From Streptomyces virus Yaboi (Duplodnaviria > Heunggongvirae > Uroviricota > Caudoviricetes), in the IMG/VR virus record IMGVR_UViG_2974625447_000001, positions 57,808-121,807 of that record: DNA of 64,000 nt; one strand, 5' to 3'. Below are positions 11,373 to 53,552 of this stretch, one piece after another. Each line of letters opens with the position of its first letter. The stretch's first letter is position 1. Under the pieces are notes generated by a model. It was not told where the DNA came from, searched no databases, and saw only the letters and a list, made by a program, of their open reading frames with translations. Made by a program: the position numbers and the translations under genes.

Positions 11373-13194
11373 GATGTCAACCGACTTTACTGAGTTTTTC
11401 AACGCTCTCTCCGATGAAGACTTCGAAGAGATTCCTGTTGATATTGAGACTTTTGTTCAAAGCCCTGATTACTTGGGGATGCCTCATCTGTCAGAGTATC
11501 AATATCAACTTATTCGTGCTTCCAGCCAAATCTACAAGGAGAGCACTCTTTATAACATTTATGAGGCACAAAAGGCCCGGCAGCGATGGGAAGAAACCTG
11601 TAATGAAGTAATTGCTTGTCTAGGCAAGGGTAGTGGCAAGGACTTTACATCTACTATTGCATGCGCCTACATCGTTTACCTCTTGCTATGTCTGCGGAAT
11701 CCAGCAAAGTATTTTGGCAAGCCTGCTGGAGACTCCATTGACATTCTGAATATTGCTATCAATGCCGCACAGGCCAACAACGTCTTCTTCAAGGGTTTCA
11801 AGAGCCGCATCGAAGGCTCACCATGGTTTGTAGGAAAGTTCACAACCAAGTCTGGTCATATCGCTTTCGACAAAAACGTCAACGTCTACTCAGGCCACTC
11901 CGAGCGAGAGGCGTGGGAGGGCTATAACCTGCTGTACTGCGTCCTTGACGAGATCTCTGGTTTTGCACTAGACTCAACATCAGGTAACGAGCAGGCCAAG
12001 ACAGCCGATGCCGTTTATAAGATGTATCGAGCATCCGTAGACTCTCGATTCCCGGCGGAAGGAAAGGTAGTTCTTCTATCATTCCCTCGCTTCAAGAATG
12101 ACTTTATTTCACAGCGCTATGAGGCAGTAGTTGCAGACAAGCAGGTTGTAGAGAGAAGTCATACATTCAAGCTTGATCCAGATCTCCCAGATGATATTGA
12201 AGAGAACAAGTTCACTATCAAGTGGGAAGAAGATCATATTATCTCCTACAACATTCCACGTGTGTACGCTCTAAAGCGTCCAACGTGGGAAGTTAATCCT
12301 ACTCGTAAGATCGAAGACTTCACCACAGCATTCTTTACTGACCCTGTTGATGCCCTTTCCCGTTTTGCGTGTATGCCACCTGACGCGATTGACGCATTCT
12401 TCAAGGATAAGGAGAAGGTTGAGGCCGTATTTGTAAAGCCTAACGGTGTTGACGAGACTGGCGCTTTCAGGAGTGATTTTGTGCCGAAGGAAGGCGTGCG
12501 TTATTACGTTCACGTTGACCTTGCGCAGAAGCATGACCATTGTGCCGTGTCTCTTGCCCATGTTGAGAAATTTGTTCAAAAGAAGATCGGAGGACAGCTC
12601 AACGAGGTTTTGCCATTTGTTGTAGTGGATGCTGTGCGCTGGTGGACACCCAAGCCAGGCAAGGATGTTGACTTCGCTGATGTTCGAGAGTATATTGTTG
12701 GATTGAAGCGAAGAGGTTTCGATCTCCGTCTTGTAACATTTGACCGCTGGAACTCTGAGGACCAGATGAAGTATCTGCGAGGAGTCGGTATCAACTCCGA
12801 GATTCTTTCAGTGGCAAAGAAGCACTATGAAGACCTGAGCTGGGTCATCTATGACCAGAGGCTTTTGGGACCGGACATTCCTCTTCTGAGAAAAGAACTT
12901 CTTTCTCTGAGAATCATGCCAAATGATAAGATTGATCACCCTAGAACTGGATCAAAGGACTTGGCGGACGCAACTTGTGGAGCTGTGTTTAATGCAATTG
13001 CGCATACACCACGAGAGCAAGATGCTGTCATTGAGATCCAGACCTATGAATCTTTGAGGCGTGCAGAGATAGAGGCTCGACGCGAGGAGCTTGACACATC
13101 ACGTGAACGTGATAATGTTATTGTAGCCCCTCGTGAGAGGCGTGAGATGCCTGATGATATTCAGGAATATCTCACAAGGCTAGAAATTATCTAA
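11371..13194 (+). CDS. terminase large subunit
   Basis: 607 aa; Walker A-like LGKGSGKDFTST; C-terminal nuclease-like region; TTG-ATG start (MM). Confidence 0.8.
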   Translation: MMSTDFTEFFNALSDEDFEEIPVDIETFVQSPDYLGMPHLSEYQYQLIRASSQIYKESTLYNIYEAQKARQRWEETCNEVIACLGKGSGKDFTSTIACAYIVYLLLCLRNPAKYFGKPAGDSIDILNIAINAAQANNVFFKGFKSRIEGSPWFVGKFTTKSGHIAFDKNVNVYSGHSEREAWEGYNLLYCVLDEISGFALDSTSGNEQAKTADAVYKMYRASVDSRFPAEGKVVLLSFPRFKNDFISQRYEAVVADKQVVERSHTFKLDPDLPDDIEENKFTIKWEEDHIISYNIPRVYALKRPTWEVNPTRKIEDFTTAFFTDPVDALSRFACMPPDAIDAFFKDKEKVEAVFVKPNGVDETGAFRSDFVPKEGVRYYVHVDLAQKHDHCAVSLAHVEKFVQKKIGGQLNEVLPFVVVDAVRWWTPKPGKDVDFADVREYIVGLKRRGFDLRLVTFDRWNSEDQMKYLRGVGINSEILSVAKKHYEDLSWVIYDQRLLGPDIPLLRKELLSLRIMPNDKIDHPRTGSKDLADATCGAVFNAIAHTPREQDAVIEIQTYESLRRAEIEARREELDTSRERDNVIVAPRERREMPDDIQEYLTRLEII

Positions 13195-13744: not shown

Positions 13745-14365
13745 ATGTCTACTACTACAGCTATGTTGCTCATCGTTGACCGATCTGGTAGCATGTCTAG
13801 TATCCAGATGGAAGCAGAGCAAGCGCTGAATGACTTCCTTGATCGGCAGAAGGCCGTAGATGGCCGATGCGGAATTAAGGTCGTTCAGTTTGATAACGAA
13901 GTAGAAGATCTATTTGGTCCAGTTGCCCTAGCTAATGCTCCTGAGATCAAGCTCATTCCTCGCGGAATGACGGCACTACTTGACGCAATAGGCAAGAGTG
14001 TGACAGAATTTAGGCAGACGATGGATCATATGCCGGTGGATAACAAGCTAGTCGTTATCCTCACAGATGGTCTTGAGAATGTCTCTCGGGAGTGGAAGCT
14101 AGATGCAGTTAACAAGCTGATTAGTGAGTCAAGGGAGCTGGGCTACGAGTTCATCTTCCTTGCTGCTAATCAGGACGCCATTGCAACTGGTGCCCAGATG
14201 GGTATTCCAAATGCTTCAAGTTTGACCTTTGCGGCCAGTCCGGCTGGTGTACGTGGCATGGGAGCAACCATGGATGCGTATGTCACTAATTATCGTGAAG
14301 GAAAGAGAGCAGAATTCACTGATCAGGATCGCAAGACAGCCAGCGGCTTGACAGACGAAGACTGA
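13745..14365 (+). CDS. von Willebrand factor A (vWA) domain protein
   Basis: MIDAS motif LIVDRSGSMSS; ...ILTDGLEN. Confidence 0.65.
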   Translation: MSTTTAMLLIVDRSGSMSSIQMEAEQALNDFLDRQKAVDGRCGIKVVQFDNEVEDLFGPVALANAPEIKLIPRGMTALLDAIGKSVTEFRQTMDHMPVDNKLVVILTDGLENVSREWKLDAVNKLISESRELGYEFIFLAANQDAIATGAQMGIPNASSLTFAASPAGVRGMGATMDAYVTNYREGKRAEFTDQDRKTASGLTDED

Positions 14366-14471
14366 TCTGTTAGAGTATTAAATGTGGGTCGAAGGGCTCG
14401 GTCGGTTATCTTACTTGGAATCAGATCGCCATTAAATTGGCACCCGACTCCCAACACTTATCCACATTATT

Positions 14472-14542
14472 GCGTCGGTAGTTTAATGGTAGAACGAGAG
14501 CCTTCCAAGCTTTCGGCGCGGGTTCGATTCCCGCTCGGCGCT
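14472..14542 (+). tRNA. tRNA-Gly (anticodon TCC)
   Basis: acceptor gcgtcgg/tcggcgc; anticodon loop cTTCCaa; T-arm gcggGTTCGATTCccgc. Confidence 0.7.
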
Positions 14543-14673
14543 CGAAAACCTGGATCTGCCCCTGCTACTTTCGTAGTAAGCAACCAGCGGAATGTAGTCT
14601 AGAATGCATTTCGGTTTCTGACCCGGAAACGTAAAGGGAGAGGCAGGCTCCAATAACTGCCAGGGTGTTTCAT

Positions 14674-14745
14674 TCCCCATTGGTGTAACTGGCAACACAG
14701 CAGACTCTGAATCTGTCATTCCTAGTTCGAATCTAGGGTGGGGAG
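14674..14745 (+). tRNA. tRNA-Gln (anticodon CTG)
   Basis: acceptor tccccat/gtgggga; anticodon loop ctCTGaa; T-arm cctaGTTCGAATCtagg. Confidence 0.7.
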
Positions 14746-14973
14746 CTGGAACGTACAGAAGTTGGGAAAACAAGGAATCTGGAACACACATAATAACCAT
14801 GGTAAAAGTGTGGAAAGGTGAACGGAAGTTCCTGACAAAGAGTGGGCACGATCCCTCACGTTCCGCCAATTTGTGGCCTAGTTGCAGGCCAGCATAAAAC
14901 AATAGATTTCCCTGGGTGTGGCGCTTACGCCGTCTATTGTTTGAATGCGAAGGGGTCACGCCCGAGCAACTAT

Positions 14974-15045
14974 GCATCCTTAGTGTAATGGTCAGCACAC
15001 GAGCTTCCAAACCTCTTAGAGTGGGTTCGATTCCTACAGGATGTG
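14974..15045 (+). tRNA. tRNA-like, probable tRNA-Trp (anticodon CCA) with imperfect anticodon stem
   Basis: acceptor gcatcct/aggatgt; D-arm gtgtAATGGTCAgcac; loop ttCCAaa flanked by only 3 bp; T-arm gtgggTTCGATTcctac. Confidence 0.45.
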
Positions 15046-15099
15046 CTTAACAATTAAAGCCCGGCGCTAAATGCTCCGGGCTTTAGCATTAGGAGCAAT

Positions 15100-15546
15100 A
15101 TGGGATACTACACACGATATCAATTAGAGATTGTGACAGACAGCGAGCGCGCCAAGGATCTTATCGATGCTGCCGACAGTGTGACAATTCCAGGAAGCTA
15201 CGAACTGAGTCTATCTAGACTGCTCAATGGCAACTATGATACGATGAAGTGGTACGACTGGGAAAGCGACATGGCAGCTCTTTCAAGAGATTGGCCAAAC
15301 GTTCTCTTTGCTATCAGTGGTGAAGGCGAGGAACCTGGCGATCTCTGGAAGGCTTGGGTAAGAAATGGCAAGGTCATCAAGGTGCAGGGCAGAATCACGT
15401 ACGATGTCCCAGACCTTGACAGAGAGCTTCCAGTCAACTACGATGTAGAAGAGAAGTACAAGGCAGAAAAGAAGGCTGAACTTCAAGCTACAATCAAGGA
15501 TCTTGAAAGTCGGCTGGCCGAATTAAAGGGACTATCTAAGGATTAA
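15100..15546 (+). CDS. hypothetical protein with C-terminal coiled coil
   Basis: 148-aa ORF between tRNA genes; plausible start MGYYTRYQ. Confidence 0.35.
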   Translation: MGYYTRYQLEIVTDSERAKDLIDAADSVTIPGSYELSLSRLLNGNYDTMKWYDWESDMAALSRDWPNVLFAISGEGEEPGDLWKAWVRNGKVIKVQGRITYDVPDLDRELPVNYDVEEKYKAEKKAELQATIKDLESRLAELKGLSKD

Positions 15547-16851: not shown

Positions 16852-18660
16852 ATGGTGAATTTCAACAAGACTCATTCAAAAGAACTTGTGAAACTCCCTG
16901 ACTCAGACCTAGAGCTTAGCTCTAGGTCTTTTAGGCTTTCCAGTCAGGGTGCACTTAAGCATGTCTCCGGAGGAGCGCGTCTAAGTGTGAAGAATCTGAT
17001 TGACTGGTTGACCGTAGCAGACTATAAAATCGAGATTGCTAAGGCCAAGCACGAGGGGAACTTCGAGAAAGCCCGCAAGCTTCGAATGGAACAACAGAAG
17101 CAGGCACAACCACGCCGAAAGCATTTCTACATTTCCCTAGGGGCGATCCTAGCCGTCACAGCATGGCTAACTAGCGCCTTCGGAGCTGTCACTTTTGGCG
17201 CGGCAGCAGTGAGCCTCTTGATTCTCTTTGCCATCGTAGGTGTAACTAATAAGACTTACATCTTTGGAGAAGAGACAGCCGAAGAGGAAGAACCAATGGC
17301 ACCATTTCCAATTGCTGACGCTCGCAACAGAGAAGAGGCTATTGAATGTCTACGCAGAGCCCTTCTTGCGGAAGGCATCACACCAAGAACGATTCTTGAT
17401 CCGACAAGATATAATTGGGGATGGGAGTTCACGGTTATTCTTCGCAAGGGCAAGCCAGATGATGTAATGGCTAAGACCAAGGATATGGAAACTCTGATGA
17501 GATTGCCTTCTGATGGAATGCTTGTCGCAGCTACCAGATTCCGAGCAGAGGTCATTATCAGACTAATGCAGTCAGACCCATTTGCTGATCTAACGCCTCA
17601 GCCAAGAGCAGAGCCTTTGTCACGGTCAATCAAGAATAAGTACAAGGTTGCCCAGAGAATGGACGGAAAGCATCTTGAGCTTAGTCTGCTGAGAAATCAC
17701 GCAGTCATTATCGCCGCGCCTGGTGGTGGTAAGTCTATGTTTATGCGAACACTGGCAGATATCACTACTAGCTGTAGAGACTGTGTAACTTGGGACATTG
17801 ACCCCGGCGGAAATGGTCTTGAGGTATTTGGAGACGCTATTGCACGTAGAGGTAGAACCGAAGCTGAAATTGAAGAAATGCTAACTGAGGCTCTGGAGTA
17901 CACCAAGATTCGTGCAAAGAAGCTCACAAAGCTTCGTATGGGCGATAACTGGCAGCCAACCAGAGAACACCCTGCCCTTGTTATCTTCATTGATGAGTTT
18001 ATTCAGCTCAACAAGAAGTGCAAGGATCTGGCTATTGACATCATTCGCAATGGACGCAAGTCAGCAATTACTGTAATTCTTGCAGCACAGCAGGCAACCA
18101 AGGATCAGCTTGGAGCGGCTATCGCAGACTCTGTGTCAATTAAGGTAATGTTTGCCTCTCGTCATGCCGACGTTCCTTTGGTATTTGGAGAGGGGGCCAT
18201 CAGCCAAGGATGGAGGCCAGATAAGCTTCACCCTGCTTCTGGAGAAGATATTGAAGATGCAGGAAAGTGTTACATCATGGGTGGGGGATCAAGAGAGCCT
18301 TATCTCTACAAGGCGTTCCCACTTGATCCAGAAGAGGCAATTGAAATCGGTGACGAACGTGCCGGTGAAGGAATTGTTGAGCTAGACAAGGACACTTATC
18401 TTGATGTAACAGTCACAGATGTAACAGACAAGAGGTTGCTGGAAGATGTTCTAGACATTTTTGAGAACTTTGATGAGCATGACTGGCTACCAGCAAGTAT
18501 CTTGACCAAGGAGCTTCGAGGCTACGGACACATCTTGACAGCCCGTCAGCTACATGAGATCCTAGGTGATACCGGCAGAGAGAGCCGCATCTGGGAAGGC
18601 TCTAAGTATAAGGTTGCCGGTTACTTTAGAAAGAACATCGAGAAGCAACTGGAGCGGTAA
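16852..18660 (+). CDS. FtsK/SpoIIIE-like DNA translocase ATPase with N-terminal TM segments
   Basis: TM helices (ILAVTAWLTSAFGAVTFGAAAVSLLILFAIVGV); Walker A IIAAPGGGKSMFMRTL; Walker B VIFIDEF; ORF track starts at 16777 but that overlaps a tRNA-like gene. Confidence 0.6.
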   Translation: MVNFNKTHSKELVKLPDSDLELSSRSFRLSSQGALKHVSGGARLSVKNLIDWLTVADYKIEIAKAKHEGNFEKARKLRMEQQKQAQPRRKHFYISLGAILAVTAWLTSAFGAVTFGAAAVSLLILFAIVGVTNKTYIFGEETAEEEEPMAPFPIADARNREEAIECLRRALLAEGITPRTILDPTRYNWGWEFTVILRKGKPDDVMAKTKDMETLMRLPSDGMLVAATRFRAEVIIRLMQSDPFADLTPQPRAEPLSRSIKNKYKVAQRMDGKHLELSLLRNHAVIIAAPGGGKSMFMRTLADITTSCRDCVTWDIDPGGNGLEVFGDAIARRGRTEAEIEEMLTEALEYTKIRAKKLTKLRMGDNWQPTREHPALVIFIDEFIQLNKKCKDLAIDIIRNGRKSAITVILAAQQATKDQLGAAIADSVSIKVMFASRHADVPLVFGEGAISQGWRPDKLHPASGEDIEDAGKCYIMGGGSREPYLYKAFPLDPEEAIEIGDERAGEGIVELDKDTYLDVTVTDVTDKRLLEDVLDIFENFDEHDWLPASILTKELRGYGHILTARQLHEILGDTGRESRIWEGSKYKVAGYFRKNIEKQLER

Positions 18661-20470: not shown

Positions 20471-20863
20471 GTGAGCGCTGCTCTCGTTGGCGTTCTATTG
20501 CACTTTGTTGGTGACTATCTCATCCAGACGGATTGGATGGCCCAATTAAAAACAAAGAGGTGGACACCGGCCATTCTTCACGGAGTGACCTATGGTGTTC
20601 CATTTCTTTTTGTCACGCAGTCATGGCTAGCTCTACTAGTCATCATTGGAACGCATATCATAATTGATCATTATCGCCTGGCTCGACATGTAGTCTGGGC
20701 AAAGAACCAATTGGCTCCGCGCGAGTTTAGATACTCATGGGCCGAAGGTAGCAAGACAGGGTATCGAGATGATGCGCCAGTTTGGCTAACGACCTGGCTC
20801 ATGATCATTGCTGACAACACCATACATGTCACGATCAACACACTAGCCATCCTCTACCTGTGA
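20471..20863 (+). CDS. integral membrane protein
   Basis: 130 aa with 3-4 hydrophobic helices. Confidence 0.4.
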   Translation: MSAALVGVLLHFVGDYLIQTDWMAQLKTKRWTPAILHGVTYGVPFLFVTQSWLALLVIIGTHIIIDHYRLARHVVWAKNQLAPREFRYSWAEGSKTGYRDDAPVWLTTWLMIIADNTIHVTINTLAILYL

Positions 20864-20872
20864 GGGTGGCTT

Positions 20873-21037
20873 TTGTCATGTCACAATCTTGTCATTTCTG
20901 TCATGACATCCTGGTGACATCCTGGTGACATGTCACGGTGACAGTGACACTTCTGTCACGGCGTCTGTCACGGTGTCACACATTGCGAAATGTCACGGTG
21001 TCACTCTGTCACATCTGTCATTTTCTCATTTGTCACG
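20873..21037. repeat. dense array of about 20 TGTCAC/GTGACA/TGTCAT hexamers (direct and inverted)
   Basis: tgtcatgtcac...tgtcat..tgtcatgacat..ggtgacatcctggtgacatgtcacggtgacagtgacac..tgtcacg..tgtcacggtgtcac..tgtcacggtgtcac..tgtcac..tgtcat..tgtcacg; includes palindromes GTGACATGTCAC and TGTCACgGTGACA. Confidence 0.8.
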
Positions 21038-21768
21038 CGCCCGGCGGCGGGCGGCGGAGGGGTTCTGCCTTTGTCGTTCTCTATATACTAAGAAGAAGCA
21101 AGGGAAGGGGTGACTTGACAGAGCAGGAGAGACCTGTTAAGGTAAATTATACTGGGAAGAGAAAAGAAAAAGAGTAACTTAAATCGATCTTCAAATCGAT
21201 AAGAGATAATAATATAGGGATATTATATATGAGACTGTTCGAGCTGCACAGAGATATTGATTCATCAGGCGTCAGCGGCACAGGCATCGTTGCTCAGGGT
21301 GTAGAGTTTGACAACGGGCAGTGCGCTATGTCATGGTTGTCTCAGTGGACCTCAGTCGCCTTGTATCCAGACATTGAGACGCTGGAAGCGATTCATGGAC
21401 ACAACGGCAACACTCGTGTAGTATGGCTAGAAGACGACGAAGACTACTGGGCAGGCTATCAGTCAGCTCCAGTCCGACCTTGAGGATCTAAATGTTCAAT
21501 GGCTTCGGTGAGTTCCTTGACATGGTTGACAAGGGTATGGCACAGTGGGAAGCAGAACAAGAAAAGATTCGTGAAGCATTCAAGGATGGTGTAACCGTCG
21601 AGTTTGAAGACGGAGAAGTGCGAGAGTACGGACCGTTTGACAAGCCCTCACCTTGATGCTACTGTAGTTAGTAGGTGGTCAGCCATAAGGCGGTAACGTT
21701 GAATTGGCCCGCCACTCGTGAGTAAGTTATCCCTACGCCTTGGCGGAGAATCCCTGCTTGCTCACTAT

Positions 21769-22232: not shown

Positions 22233-22713
22233 GGATGCTAGGTTTACGGTCGATGTCAACAACTTACCCATACAATTTTATATCGGGCCGAAGAGTATCG
22301 ATTATCTTACACTGCAAATGAAAGATCGATATTCACCAACTTGCCCGATCTTTTCATTTCTACGAAAGGATCAAAGGTTGGACACCGAAGCGCGCATCGC
22401 ACGTTTCAAGGAGCTTTGGCAATCAGGCGAAAGCTATTGGGCAGAAGACATTGTTGATGAAATCAATGGTGAGCTGTCAGACGATGAGTTCAAGCTGAGG
22501 CATGTAGATCAAATCGAAGAGGACACCTCTCGATGGATGGATCACATGTTGGATATCGTTGAAATTAACGAAGGTGTCTTCGTTGGAGTACGCTGGGAAA
22601 GCGGCAAGACGGAGATGCAAGAGAATATGTATGAAGACGATTCCGTCTATCTGCTTGAGCGAGTAGAGAAGGTCATCACTACTGTTGAGTGGAATGATCT
22701 AAAGACTCTCTAA
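22231..22713 (+). CDS. hypothetical acidic protein upstream of Ro60
   Basis: 160-aa ORF. Confidence 0.4.
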   Translation: MDARFTVDVNNLPIQFYIGPKSIDYLTLQMKDRYSPTCPIFSFLRKDQRLDTEARIARFKELWQSGESYWAEDIVDEINGELSDDEFKLRHVDQIEEDTSRWMDHMLDIVEINEGVFVGVRWESGKTEMQENMYEDDSVYLLERVEKVITTVEWNDLKTL

Positions 22714-22748: not shown

Positions 22749-24374
22749 ATGTCCAACGCACTAACTAACGCCGCAAAGGCAGCAAACAAGACTTCTCAGT
22801 CAATGAAGGCTAAGGCTGGACAGGTTAAGAACAACGCTGGTGGATTCGTCTTCCAGGTTTCTGACCAGGCCCGCCTTGAGCGTTTCCTTATTCTGGGAAC
22901 TGACGGAGGAACGTACTACGTCAATGAGGTTAACCACACTCAGAAGAACGTAGATTTCCTTAACGAGTTTATTGCTCGTGACGAAGCTGCTGTCCTGAAC
23001 ACGATTGTTGATGTCTCTGTCAATGGCCGTGCATACAAGCAGTCTCCAGCCCTTTTCGCCCTTGCTTCTGTTATTGTCAATGGCAAGGACAAGCAGGCGG
23101 TAAAGGCTGTATTCAACAAGGTCGTAAGGACTGCTACTCATCTCTACGAGGTGGTTAACTACCTTAACGAGCTTGGTGGATGGGGTCGCGCAAAGCGCGA
23201 GATCGTGGCTGGCTGGTTCGATAGGGACGCTGATAAGCTTGCTTATCAGGCAGTCAAGTATCGTTCCCGTAAGTTCGGTGGCAACACCTGGACGCTACGA
23301 GACGTGATGCGAAAGGCTCATCCACAGAACGTTGATGCGAATGTAGCTGCCTTTATCACAAAGGGGGATGTTGTAACAGACTCTCCAGTTGCGATTAAGG
23401 GTTTCGCCCGAATGCAGAAGGCAACTTCTGTTGAGGAAGTCCACAGCGTTCTTCGTGAATACGAGATGCTTTCATGGGAGACAATTCCAACACAGTTCCT
23501 CACGGATGCCAGTGTTTGGAAGCGACTCTTTGCTAATGGTCAGCTTCGCGGCCAGGCTGCTGTTCGAAACATCACTCGCCTTGCGCGTATTGGTGCCTTC
23601 AAGGATATGCGTTTCGCTGCGAACTTTGCTAGCCAGCTAACGAATGAGGAAATGATTCGTCAGTCTCGACTGCACCCAATCAACTTCCTTAACGCTGCCG
23701 TTGTTTATGCGGAAGGCCAGGTGGATCGAAAGACCTACTATGGTGGTCGTGTGAAGAACTGGGAGACTGAGGGCGTTATTGTCGATGCTATCGATGAGGC
23801 GTTTCACAAGTCATTCAAGACCATTGAGCCAGCGGGAAAGAGGACGATGCTCGCCATCGACTGTTCCGGTTCAATGAGTGCACTTGCGTCAGGTCTCGAT
23901 CTAACTTGTGCACAGGTCGCTGCTGCAATGGCAATGACTGTTGCACGTACTGAGCCAGCTCACATTATTCGTGGCTTCTCCAGCGCGGGTTACAACTGGC
24001 GTGACAGTGGTCTAGCTGAGCTAAAGATTACCGGCCGTTCCTCTCTTGCCCAGGCAATGAGTGAGATGCGAAAGGTGAACTGGGGCGGAACTGACTGCTC
24101 ACTGCCAATGACGTGGGCTCTTGAGAACAGGGTTGAAGTTGACACCTTTGTTGTTATCACTGATAACGAGACATGGGCTGGAAAGATTCACCCATTCCAG
24201 GCTCTCAAGCAGTATCGCAAGAGCATGGGAATCGATGCGAAGCTTGCTGTTCTAGGAGTTTCTGCAACTGATTTCTCTATCGCTGATCCAAGTGATCGCG
24301 GCATGATGGATTTCGTTGGCTTTGATAGCAACGCTCCACGTGTTCTGGCTGACTTCTCTGCGGGTCGTCTCTGA
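22749..24374 (+). CDS. rsr: Ro60/TROVE-domain RNA-binding protein (Rsr homologue) with C-terminal vWA
   Basis: 541 aa; N-terminal RLERFLILGTDGGTYYV matches Ro60 RLHRFLCFGSEGGTYYI; PALFALASV matches Ro60 PMLFALAIC; C-terminal vWA MIDAS LAIDCSGSMS; RBS ggaaaggaaag; terminator 24376-24405. Confidence 0.85.
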   Translation: MSNALTNAAKAANKTSQSMKAKAGQVKNNAGGFVFQVSDQARLERFLILGTDGGTYYVNEVNHTQKNVDFLNEFIARDEAAVLNTIVDVSVNGRAYKQSPALFALASVIVNGKDKQAVKAVFNKVVRTATHLYEVVNYLNELGGWGRAKREIVAGWFDRDADKLAYQAVKYRSRKFGGNTWTLRDVMRKAHPQNVDANVAAFITKGDVVTDSPVAIKGFARMQKATSVEEVHSVLREYEMLSWETIPTQFLTDASVWKRLFANGQLRGQAAVRNITRLARIGAFKDMRFAANFASQLTNEEMIRQSRLHPINFLNAAVVYAEGQVDRKTYYGGRVKNWETEGVIVDAIDEAFHKSFKTIEPAGKRTMLAIDCSGSMSALASGLDLTCAQVAAAMAMTVARTEPAHIIRGFSSAGYNWRDSGLAELKITGRSSLAQAMSEMRKVNWGGTDCSLPMTWALENRVEVDTFVVITDNETWAGKIHPFQALKQYRKSMGIDAKLAVLGVSATDFSIADPSDRGMMDFVGFDSNAPRVLADFSAGRL

Positions 24375-25325: not shown

Positions 25326-25643
25326 ATGAAGAACTGTCCGATCTGCGATAAAGACAAGAAGCTCGATGAATTTGGAAGGCAGATAACAAATCCTTCCAAG
25401 TTCTACAAGTGGTGTCGTGATTGCAGGCTCTCGATGGCCAGACGGAAGAGAAACGACTTTAACGAGGGTCGAGAGCTTCGATCAAAGACTGTTCAGCTAA
25501 GAAAGCTGACAGACGCACAGGTTGTAGAAGTCAAACTTCTTGCCGAATGGAACACTCCATATTCAGAAATTGCACAACAGTATGGAGTTTCTGCAACTAC
25601 AATTTCAAAGGTCGTAAACAAGGGATATGCAAACGTTTACTGA
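25326..25643 (+). CDS. zinc-ribbon plus HTH putative transcription regulator
   Basis: CPICDK...CRDC zinc ribbon; C-terminal HTH LTDAQVVEVKLLAEWNTPYSEIAQQYGVSATTISKV. Confidence 0.45.
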   Translation: MKNCPICDKDKKLDEFGRQITNPSKFYKWCRDCRLSMARRKRNDFNEGRELRSKTVQLRKLTDAQVVEVKLLAEWNTPYSEIAQQYGVSATTISKVVNKGYANVY

Positions 25644-53240: not shown

Positions 53241-53552
53241 ATGTCCGGAATTCTTGAGCAGAGGGGCATAAGTCCGGAAGAAGTACAGTGGGAAGACTTG
53301 GCTCTGTGTCGTGGTCTTCCCACTTCCTTCTTCTTCGAGACTTACGAAGAGGATAAAATCTCTGCCCGATACGTAGATGAAATGTGCCTTCGCTGCCCGG
53401 TTATGAAGCAATGTGCAATGGCAGCCAAGGAGAACTCAGGCTTCGGAGTCTGGGGCGGTGTTTATTGGAACGCTGCTAGGGTAGACAAGTATCGTAATGC
53501 CCATAAGACTCCGGAAACATGGGAAAGGATCAAGGAGAGGTTGAGTGAATGA
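53241..53552 (+). CDS. whiB: WhiB-family Fe-S transcription regulator
   Basis: four Cys (C-x-C-x2-C-x5-C) plus hallmark GVWGG followed by basic tail; start chosen downstream of overlapping ORF 53018-53257. Confidence 0.7.
   Translation: MSGILEQRGISPEEVQWEDLALCRGLPTSFFFETYEEDKISARYVDEMCLRCPVMKQCAMAAKENSGFGVWGGVYWNAARVDKYRNAHKTPETWERIKERLSE

Follow-up and report, generated by a model that had tools for sequence, protein, structure and literature searches.

The 64,000-nucleotide window analysed here matches the genome of Streptomyces phage Yaboi at 100% identity (NC_048730.1; a Karimacvirus of the family Stanwilliamsviridae, BE cluster of actinobacteriophages; genome of 131,250 bp), and subtracting 57,807 from a coordinate of the Yaboi record gives the window coordinate. 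We detected a dense array of TGTCAC-type hexamers at window positions 20873-21037, designated array B, and a second array of the same hexamer, array A, at Yaboi record positions 14168-14603, outside the window and 64 kb from array B. Array A overlaps gene 35, encoding a membrane protein of the DUF2637 family (gp35). The left arm of the Yaboi genome is transcribed leftward and is accompanied by one long rightward region rich in tRNA genes and small open reading frames (ORFs); from the duplicated annotation we infer a direct terminal repeat of about 12.4 kb.

Array B contains 18 TGTCA(C/T)/(A/G)TGACA sites in 165 bp (nine TGTCAC, four GTGACA, four TGTCAT and one ATGACA), which lie in both orientations with a start-to-start spacing of 5-17 bp. 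The background for TGTCA/TGACA is 0.55 per 165 bp, giving a Poisson probability of about 2e-21 for the 18 cores, and array B is the top-ranking 5-mer and 6-mer cluster of the window. The initial annotation had described about 20 hexamers; the extreme density was borne out and the count was corrected to 18. The palindromes and tandem units that it quoted were all located in the sequence: GTGACATGTCAC at 20925, TGTCATGACA at 20899 and TGTCAC-g-GTGACA at 20931, and tandem TGTCACGGTGTCAC units at 20966 and 20991, together with a third pair at 8-bp spacing, TGTCACtcTGTCAC, at 20999. The scan of the 131-kb genome detected just two places with at least two hexamers within 40 bp, arrays A and B, which together hold 39 of the 90 genome copies of the hexamer; no other iteron-like cluster was found by the whole-genome search in Yaboi.

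The conserved left neighbour of array B is gene 122, encoding a DUF3307 membrane protein (20471-20863, plus strand). A terminator-like hairpin with a T-run (20845-20871, plus strand), nearly invariant in nine Karimacvirus phages, covers the end of this gene directly upstream of the array. The array is followed, as reported earlier, by a GC-only block and a TTGACA promoter. The block (21036-21062) has 27 nt with one A, is G-rich on the plus strand and is conserved in composition and variable in sequence; the alignment fold detected no conserved hairpin in it, so that a conserved terminator hairpin was not supported. The promoter-like sequence TTGACA-N17-TAAGGT (21115-21143, plus strand) is of the sigma-70/HrdB type and invariant across the relatives. 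The window has 43 TTGACA-N16-18-TAnnnT sites against 1.5 expected, 40 of the 43 on the plus strand, which implies that predicted host-type promoters are very dense through the tRNA and small-gene region.

An AT-rich segment (21137-21228), the candidate DNA-unwinding element (DUE), contains two extremes of the 131-kb genome, namely the 80 bp with the highest AT content (75%) and the longest homopurine run, GGGAAGAGAAAAGAAAAAGAG (21 nt, 21154-21174, plus strand); both are found 100 bp downstream of array B. The same order of elements, with an equivalent AT-rich segment after array B, is present in the phages Coruscant and MulchMansion. Gene 124 (21229-21483) lies to the right. A conserved AAATCGAT/ATCGATA pair (21200-21228) lies in the interval from the homopurine run to gene 124; its two elements are directly repeated in Yaboi, and in Karimac, Enygma and MindFlayer they form a perfect inverted repeat, ATCGATAcgggTATCGAT.

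Array B is kept in the nine Karimacvirus phages and also in Coruscant and MulchMansion, a conservation in relatives that favours a real element. In four close relatives the motif positions had one substitution in 92 (1%), versus 10-15 in 47 spacer positions (21-32%), with Fisher p from 8e-5 to 2e-7 (for instance, Yaboi versus LukeCage, motif 1/92 and spacer 12/47; Yaboi versus Karimac, motif 1/92 and spacer 15/47). The contrast was weaker in Enygma (7/91 versus 13/47, p 0.004) and Wofford (p 0.03); in Wofford and Elmer the right half of array B is replaced and 11 sites are kept. Judging from these alignments, the hexamers of array B are under purifying selection at the DNA level.

The position of the array between a membrane-protein gene and a promoter, as first described, was confirmed, but the GenBank record of Yaboi has a coding sequence (CDS) across the array, gene 123 (20938-21177, plus strand, 79 aa, Cys/His-rich). 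A gene of this type is annotated in Yaboi and in Enygma (gene 122, 75 aa), and no gene is annotated at array B in Stanimal, LukeCage, StarPlatinum, Karimac, Wofford, Elmer and MindFlayer. In the nine-phage alignment the frame, the start and the C-terminus of the longest open frame over the array vary, and the indels are not multiples of three. The Cys/His richness of the gene 123 product is translated TGT-CAC, and no Pfam match was found for it. Gene 123 was therefore judged spurious and ruled out as a real CDS by the shifting frames, the non-triplet indels and the lack of a Pfam match, and the gene calls for Yaboi gene 123 and Enygma gene 122 are to be corrected. The check for coding in another frame likewise favoured non-coding DNA, with no frame conserved among the nine phages. 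The array exists, is conserved and is non-coding. The earlier view that it is not ordinary intergenic DNA holds: the hexamers are kept while the spacers drift, the sites occur in both orientations at irregular spacing, and no ORF is conserved.

Array A contains 26 TGTCAC/GTGACA hexamers and spans the 3' 40% of gene 35 (Yaboi record 14241-15125, minus strand, outside the window) and the first 73 bp past its stop codon. The motif is found in several reading frames (as VT, RDK and LSR) and in both orientations. Substitutions reached 5-8% at motif positions, versus 13-25% at the interspersed positions and 12-14% in the part encoding the N-terminal domain. Gene 36, Dps/ferritin-like and annotated as 'DNA binding protein', adjoins array A.

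The only Pfam match of gp35 is PF10935 (DUF2637), a family without assigned function, and a full-text literature search for DUF2637 retrieved unrelated mentions only. In the AlphaFold2 model of gp35, built from 39 homologues, residues 6-136 form four long hydrophobic helices, and two amphipathic helices are also present. Residues 180-242, which array A encodes, are disordered, and residues 250-292 form a confidently modelled three-helix bundle with a predicted local distance difference test (pLDDT) score of about 85. Because the encoded linker is predicted to be disordered, constraint at the DNA level would be tolerable in array A. The C-terminal bundle is probably cytoplasmic, given the positive N-terminus and the even number of helices in the model. 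By its look the modelled bundle resembles a helix-turn-helix (HTH) domain, suggesting DNA binding.

The mix of motifs co-varies between arrays A and B within genomes. Yaboi and MindFlayer have TGTCAC/TGTCAT only, with no TGTCC, in both arrays, and MulchMansion and Coruscant have TGTCAC together with TGTCC in both; Samisti12 has the latter mix in array A. Other elements carry arrays of private motifs in their own DUF2637 genes: 15 copies of TGCGAA in gp19 of the satellite MiniFlayer, 17-21 copies of ACGACA in gp15 of the satellite Mulchroom and in two uncultivated relatives, and a weaker set of 7-10 copies of (A/G)GACA in integrated Mulchroom-like satellites. Plasmid NZ_CP108353 (70% GC) has about 35 copies of CGCTCA/TGAGCG (motif GCGCTCA), including TGAGCGCGCTCA palindromes. 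Among the DUF2637 genes with a C-terminal domain that we examined, the private array sits in the 3' half of each gene, with phage BillNye as the exception.

The array motif tracks the putative recognition helix of the DUF2637 C-terminal domain across these elements. The third helix IPANTITVALSR is found with TGTCAC only, VPxNTINKAVSR with TGTCAC plus TGTCC, VKRSTLNTCIQR with ACGACA, and VDKAKVSKALSY with TGCGAA. DUF2637 is the sole protein common to Yaboi and both satellites. The HTH gene at 25326-25643 and the WhiB gene at 53241-53552 of the window, both named in the initial annotation, are absent from the satellites with homologous arrays; no observation pointed to these two genes, and their link to the array was not supported. 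The motif of MiniFlayer is unlike that of its helper MindFlayer, and therefore the reader of the array must be encoded by the element. As a negative control, the chromosomal Streptomyces DUF2637 paralogues, which are core genes in conserved synteny and are devoid of the C-terminal bundle, have no array.

The integrated Mulchroom-like satellites, of about 13 kb, were found at five loci from Streptomyces chromosomes and IMG/VR. Their genes encode an integrase, an HTH regulator, an Lsr2-like protein, DUF2637, terminase, portal, scaffold and capsid, and the DUF2637 gene belongs to the core set of the family. The DUF2637 gene with the array on NZ_CP108353.1 (5350-6080) belongs to a 93-kb plasmid with phage-like genes (HNH, ParB-N-terminal domain protein).

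Array B is very probably a binding array for an element-encoded protein. The multi-site protein-binding array proposed in the initial annotation is consistent with its conservation pattern, in which the hexamers are constant and the spacers drift. We consider gp35 the probable binder, at somewhat better than an even chance, given the covariation. The other form of the initial proposal, overlapping half-sites for a dimeric regulator, is disfavoured by the irregular 5-17 bp spacing and the mixed orientation, which argue against a rigid dimer and fit independent small domains on long flexible tethers.

The overall best explanation, to which we assign about an even chance, is that array B is a multivalent gp35 array serving as a replication origin or a membrane-attached site that organises replication. 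The C-terminal three-helix domains of gp35 would read the 6-bp sites of arrays A and B, each domain being connected through about 65 disordered linker residues to a gp35 body that is embedded in the membrane and probably oligomeric. Flexible tethers would allow sites of any orientation and spacing to be occupied, so that both DNA segments would be coated through avidity and tied to the membrane. Array B would most probably be the unwinding-competent member of the pair, because the GC block, the promoter and the most AT-rich, purine-asymmetric stretch of the genome come after it, and hence most probably the replication origin or membrane-attached replication-organising site. Taken separately, a function as origin or replication organiser is plausible at somewhat under an even chance, and another role in membrane tethering or DNA transfer is possible at a lower level of expectation.

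Two of the features expected of an origin are found at array B: a cluster of repeated sites, namely the 18 conserved hexamers with gp35 as the reader predicted from covariation, and the adjacent AT-rich unwinding element. We also scanned IMG/VR with TGTCACGGTGTCAC; most hits were chance single matches, and real arrays were found at 12 of 120 loci among those listed. In seven unrelated viral contigs (GC about 0.59-0.66), 9-12 TGTCACg hexamers occur in about 170 bp, and these arrays abut the 3' end of a gene for a 723-aa AAA_25 (RepA/DnaB-like helicase) protein; a position after a gene of this helicase type is typical for an origin. Two more contigs, one of them with 37% GC, have similar arrays in AT-rich intergenic DNA.

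Several observations weigh against this explanation. The profile of the gp35 C-terminal domain gave nothing significant versus PDB and Pfam and matched no known HTH family, and the Foldseek search of the whole model versus PDB gave nothing below E = 0.9 and was uninformative. BillNye has the C-terminal bundle and no array within 2.5 kb on either side. It would be unusual for an initiator to be an integral membrane protein. Array B is missing from the syntenic site in Samisti12 (1594-2790), where a large 'hydrolase' gene comes straight after the DUF3307 gene, and MulchMansion, a congener of Samisti12, keeps array B there.

Other points bear on the origin function. The repeats of about 17-22 bp in helical phase that are expected of iterons are not found, the sites being of 6 bp at 5-17 bp spacing in mixed orientation. 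No comparable AT-rich segment adjoins array A or the arrays of the satellites, and the AT-rich stretch at array B could be just the 5' leader of gene 124. GC skew is uniformly positive with no switch at array B, and it is uninformative on the origin because all genes are co-oriented. The IMG/VR contexts were gathered by searching for the motif itself. No enrichment for a host-type origin was detected either: DnaA boxes (TTGTCCACA-type 9-mers with at most one mismatch) numbered 20 against 16 expected in the 64 kb, with none near array B, so that an oriC-like cluster of host DnaA boxes was rejected.

The satellite MiniFlayer provides a further argument of this kind. Its gene 13 (11911-13017) has five 22-bp palindromic repeats, TGTCTGTCCTC...GAGGACAG, at 12247-12467. 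Four of the five form a tandem series spaced by exactly 22 bp, and an AT-rich tract made of 12-bp repeats comes after them. The product has by eye a winged HTH (wHTH)-like segment at the N-terminus and no Pfam or PHROG match. Gene 13 is thus a separate, textbook candidate for a lambda-O-like origin, and therefore the DUF2637 array of MiniFlayer need not be an origin; the role of the DUF2637/array pair may be in tethering, partition or transfer instead of initiation. This lambda-O-like iteron gene of MiniFlayer seems to have been overlooked.

Transcriptional control is an unlikely alternative explanation. Array B would then be an upstream operator, an enhancer or a roadblock, acting on the promoter at 21115 or stopping read-through out of the operon upstream, and bound by a phage regulator, with array A used for autoregulation of gene 35. 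The location of array B agrees with this, since the terminator-like hairpin on its left and the promoter on its right are both conserved, and autoregulation through sites inside the regulator's own gene is known, RepAM being a case for which it has been discussed (see below). However, 79 bp separate the end of the array from the -35 element, with no promoter overlap, the 42 other similar promoters of the window have no array, the genome has two arrays only, the other one inside a gene on the opposite arm, and 18 to 26 sites are far beyond the needs of an operator. The operator link to the adjacent promoter implied by the initial annotation was not supported, on the same grounds.

The arrays could also be clt-type sites recognised by the FtsK/TraB-like translocase gp111 and loading a pump that moves phage DNA, for instance between hyphal compartments, with gp35 at most an Spd-like partner; we regard this main rival as quite improbable. 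Gene 111 (16852-18660, plus strand) lies 2.2 kb upstream of array B and its product is FtsK-like, the best NCBIfam match being plasmid TraB (9e-9, far below the cut-off). The clt of pWTY27, where the FtsK-like TraA binds four TGACACC repeats plus CCCGCCC repeats, resembles GTGACAC plus the GC block (PMC3583192); plasmid NZ_CP109008 has a DUF2637 gene beside an FtsK-like gene, under GntR regulators; and DNA-binding SpdB2-like proteins with four transmembrane (TM) helices were proposed to aid the spread of phage DNA (PMC4447253). More generally, the clt/TRS sites of pSVH1, pWTY27 and pJV1 (TraB/TraA) are, like those in Yaboi, short repeats in direct and inverted orientation, of 7-9 bp and clustered in 50-175 bp, and their reader is a membrane-associated DNA-handling protein with a C-terminal HTH, as predicted for gp35.

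In the clt/TRS systems, unlike here, the FtsK-like pump itself reads the repeats and clt abuts its gene, while the motif of the Yaboi-type arrays follows the C-terminal helix of the DUF2637 protein and not the translocase. Satellites without an FtsK-like gene still carry arrays, with motifs unlike those of their helpers. No gamma or wHTH domain was detectable in gp111, and the sites, which are of 6 bp rather than 8 bp, are not adjacent to the gene of the translocase. The arrays were not assigned to the clt/TRS sites, given that no wHTH was detected in gp111, the distance of 2.2 kb and the pump-less satellites with motifs of their own. Homology between DUF2637 and SpdB2 could not be established. 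phiC31 gp25 has by eye the same architecture (four TM helices, a PE-rich linker and a C-terminal helix-rich tail), and it gave no significant match by Pfam or hhalign; phiC31 gp23 gave no significant match either.

That array B is the coding gene 123, or else a structured or sponge RNA, is very improbable: its single strand folds better than shuffles (z = -4.5), but the fold signal stems from the upstream terminator hairpin and inverted motif pairs, the Rfam scan found no family in the array, and the coding version fails on the shifting frames described above. Equally remote is a decoy for a host sigma factor, in which TGACA cores mimic the -35 and titrate the RNA polymerase holoenzyme of a phage that relies on many TTGACA promoters, since the conserved unit is TGTCAC/TGTCAT and not TTGACA, BE2 arrays mix in TGTCC, no -10 elements occur at the correct spacing, and the related TGCGAA, ACGACA and GCGCTCA arrays are unlike any -35 and co-vary with the DUF2637 C-terminal domain. 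The likeness of the TGACA core to the -35 hexamer of the phage promoters, pointed out in the initial annotation, exists, yet it is limited to five of six positions (GTGACA versus TTGACA), and sigma/-35 sequestration was not supported.

Binding-site arrays with one copy inside the gene of the binder are a known kind. For the replication protein RepAM of pMEA300, the repeats bound are of 8 bp and lie at the 3' end of the RepAM gene itself (PMC2440964), which is like array A in that the repeats are inside the coding sequence of the binder. RepAM belongs to DUF3631, PF12307 (PMC3218068), and homology of gp35 (PF10935) to RepAM was ruled out. In phage SPP1, gp38 binds repeats in oriL, located inside gene 38, and in the intergenic oriR, each beside an AT-rich DUE, with oriR bracketed by transcription signals (PMC6316719). 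The layout in Yaboi is similar, array A in gene 35 corresponding to oriL and array B, intergenic, bracketed by hairpin and promoter and with an AT-rich neighbour, corresponding to oriR. The binders differ, gp38 being soluble and organising the replisome, and gp35 being a membrane protein with four helices from a family that is uncharacterised; the Yaboi sites are of 6 bp, irregular and far more numerous (18 and 26), and the AT-rich neighbour is at array B only.

In phage lambda, the repeats bound by the O protein lie within its own gene, in the part encoding the inter-domain linker. These are four phased 19-bp iterons, unlike the DUF2637 arrays, and gene 13 of MiniFlayer resembles ori-lambda much more than the arrays do. 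In phi29, phage replication is organised at the membrane by p16.7, which is anchored there and binds DNA without sequence specificity. The oriP of Epstein-Barr virus (EBV) has two separate clusters of EBNA1 sites (FR/DS), a many-site tether and a few-site origin. Both p16.7 and EBNA1 are functional analogies only, EBNA1 being eukaryotic-viral and unrelated.

The new features are a predicted reader from an uncharacterised membrane-protein family, 6-bp sites that are very dense and unphased, the presence of two such arrays in a Streptomyces phage of 131 kb, and the versions with private specificity in satellites and plasmids. The literature search found no description of any of these features; the satellite literature mentions 'a predicted membrane protein' and no repeats. 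We tentatively propose, as a possibility that is still doubtful, that the DUF2637 proteins with the C-terminal domain and the arrays inside their genes, joined by a second array in the large phages, form a previously undescribed membrane-tethered, sequence-specific DNA-anchoring system common to BE-type phages, satellites and phage-like plasmids. If so, the private specificity of each element would work like an incompatibility or identity determinant, and the system could supply the 'replicase-less' satellites with the function that they are missing, the organisation of replication. Another possibility is a cis/trans pair handing element DNA to a TraB-like pump for mycelial spread.

No replication origin or cis-acting maintenance site appears to be described for BE-cluster/Stanwilliamsviridae phages, and the C-terminal domain of gp35 with TGTCAC provides a candidate protein-DNA pair with natural specificity variants in MiniFlayer, Mulchroom and plasmids. 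The pair also bears on the maintenance of Streptomyces satellites that were reported without replication genes, each of which has a private DUF2637/array pair.

Other repeats and a possible RNA gene were detected in Yaboi. An Rfam match to RF01656, a nematode sbRNA family related to Y RNAs, was found at window positions 22279-22351 (plus strand) with 38.2 bits, the gathering score being 38. The Ro-like (TROVE/vWA) gene (22749-24374) follows about 400 bp downstream, and the matched segment is possibly a phage Y-RNA-like partner of Ro. The sequence ATATAAGACA has five copies within 300 bp at about 380-700 of the Yaboi record, in the terminal repeat near the left end, and 11 genome-wide, and CCGCCCCGG has 43 copies genome-wide.

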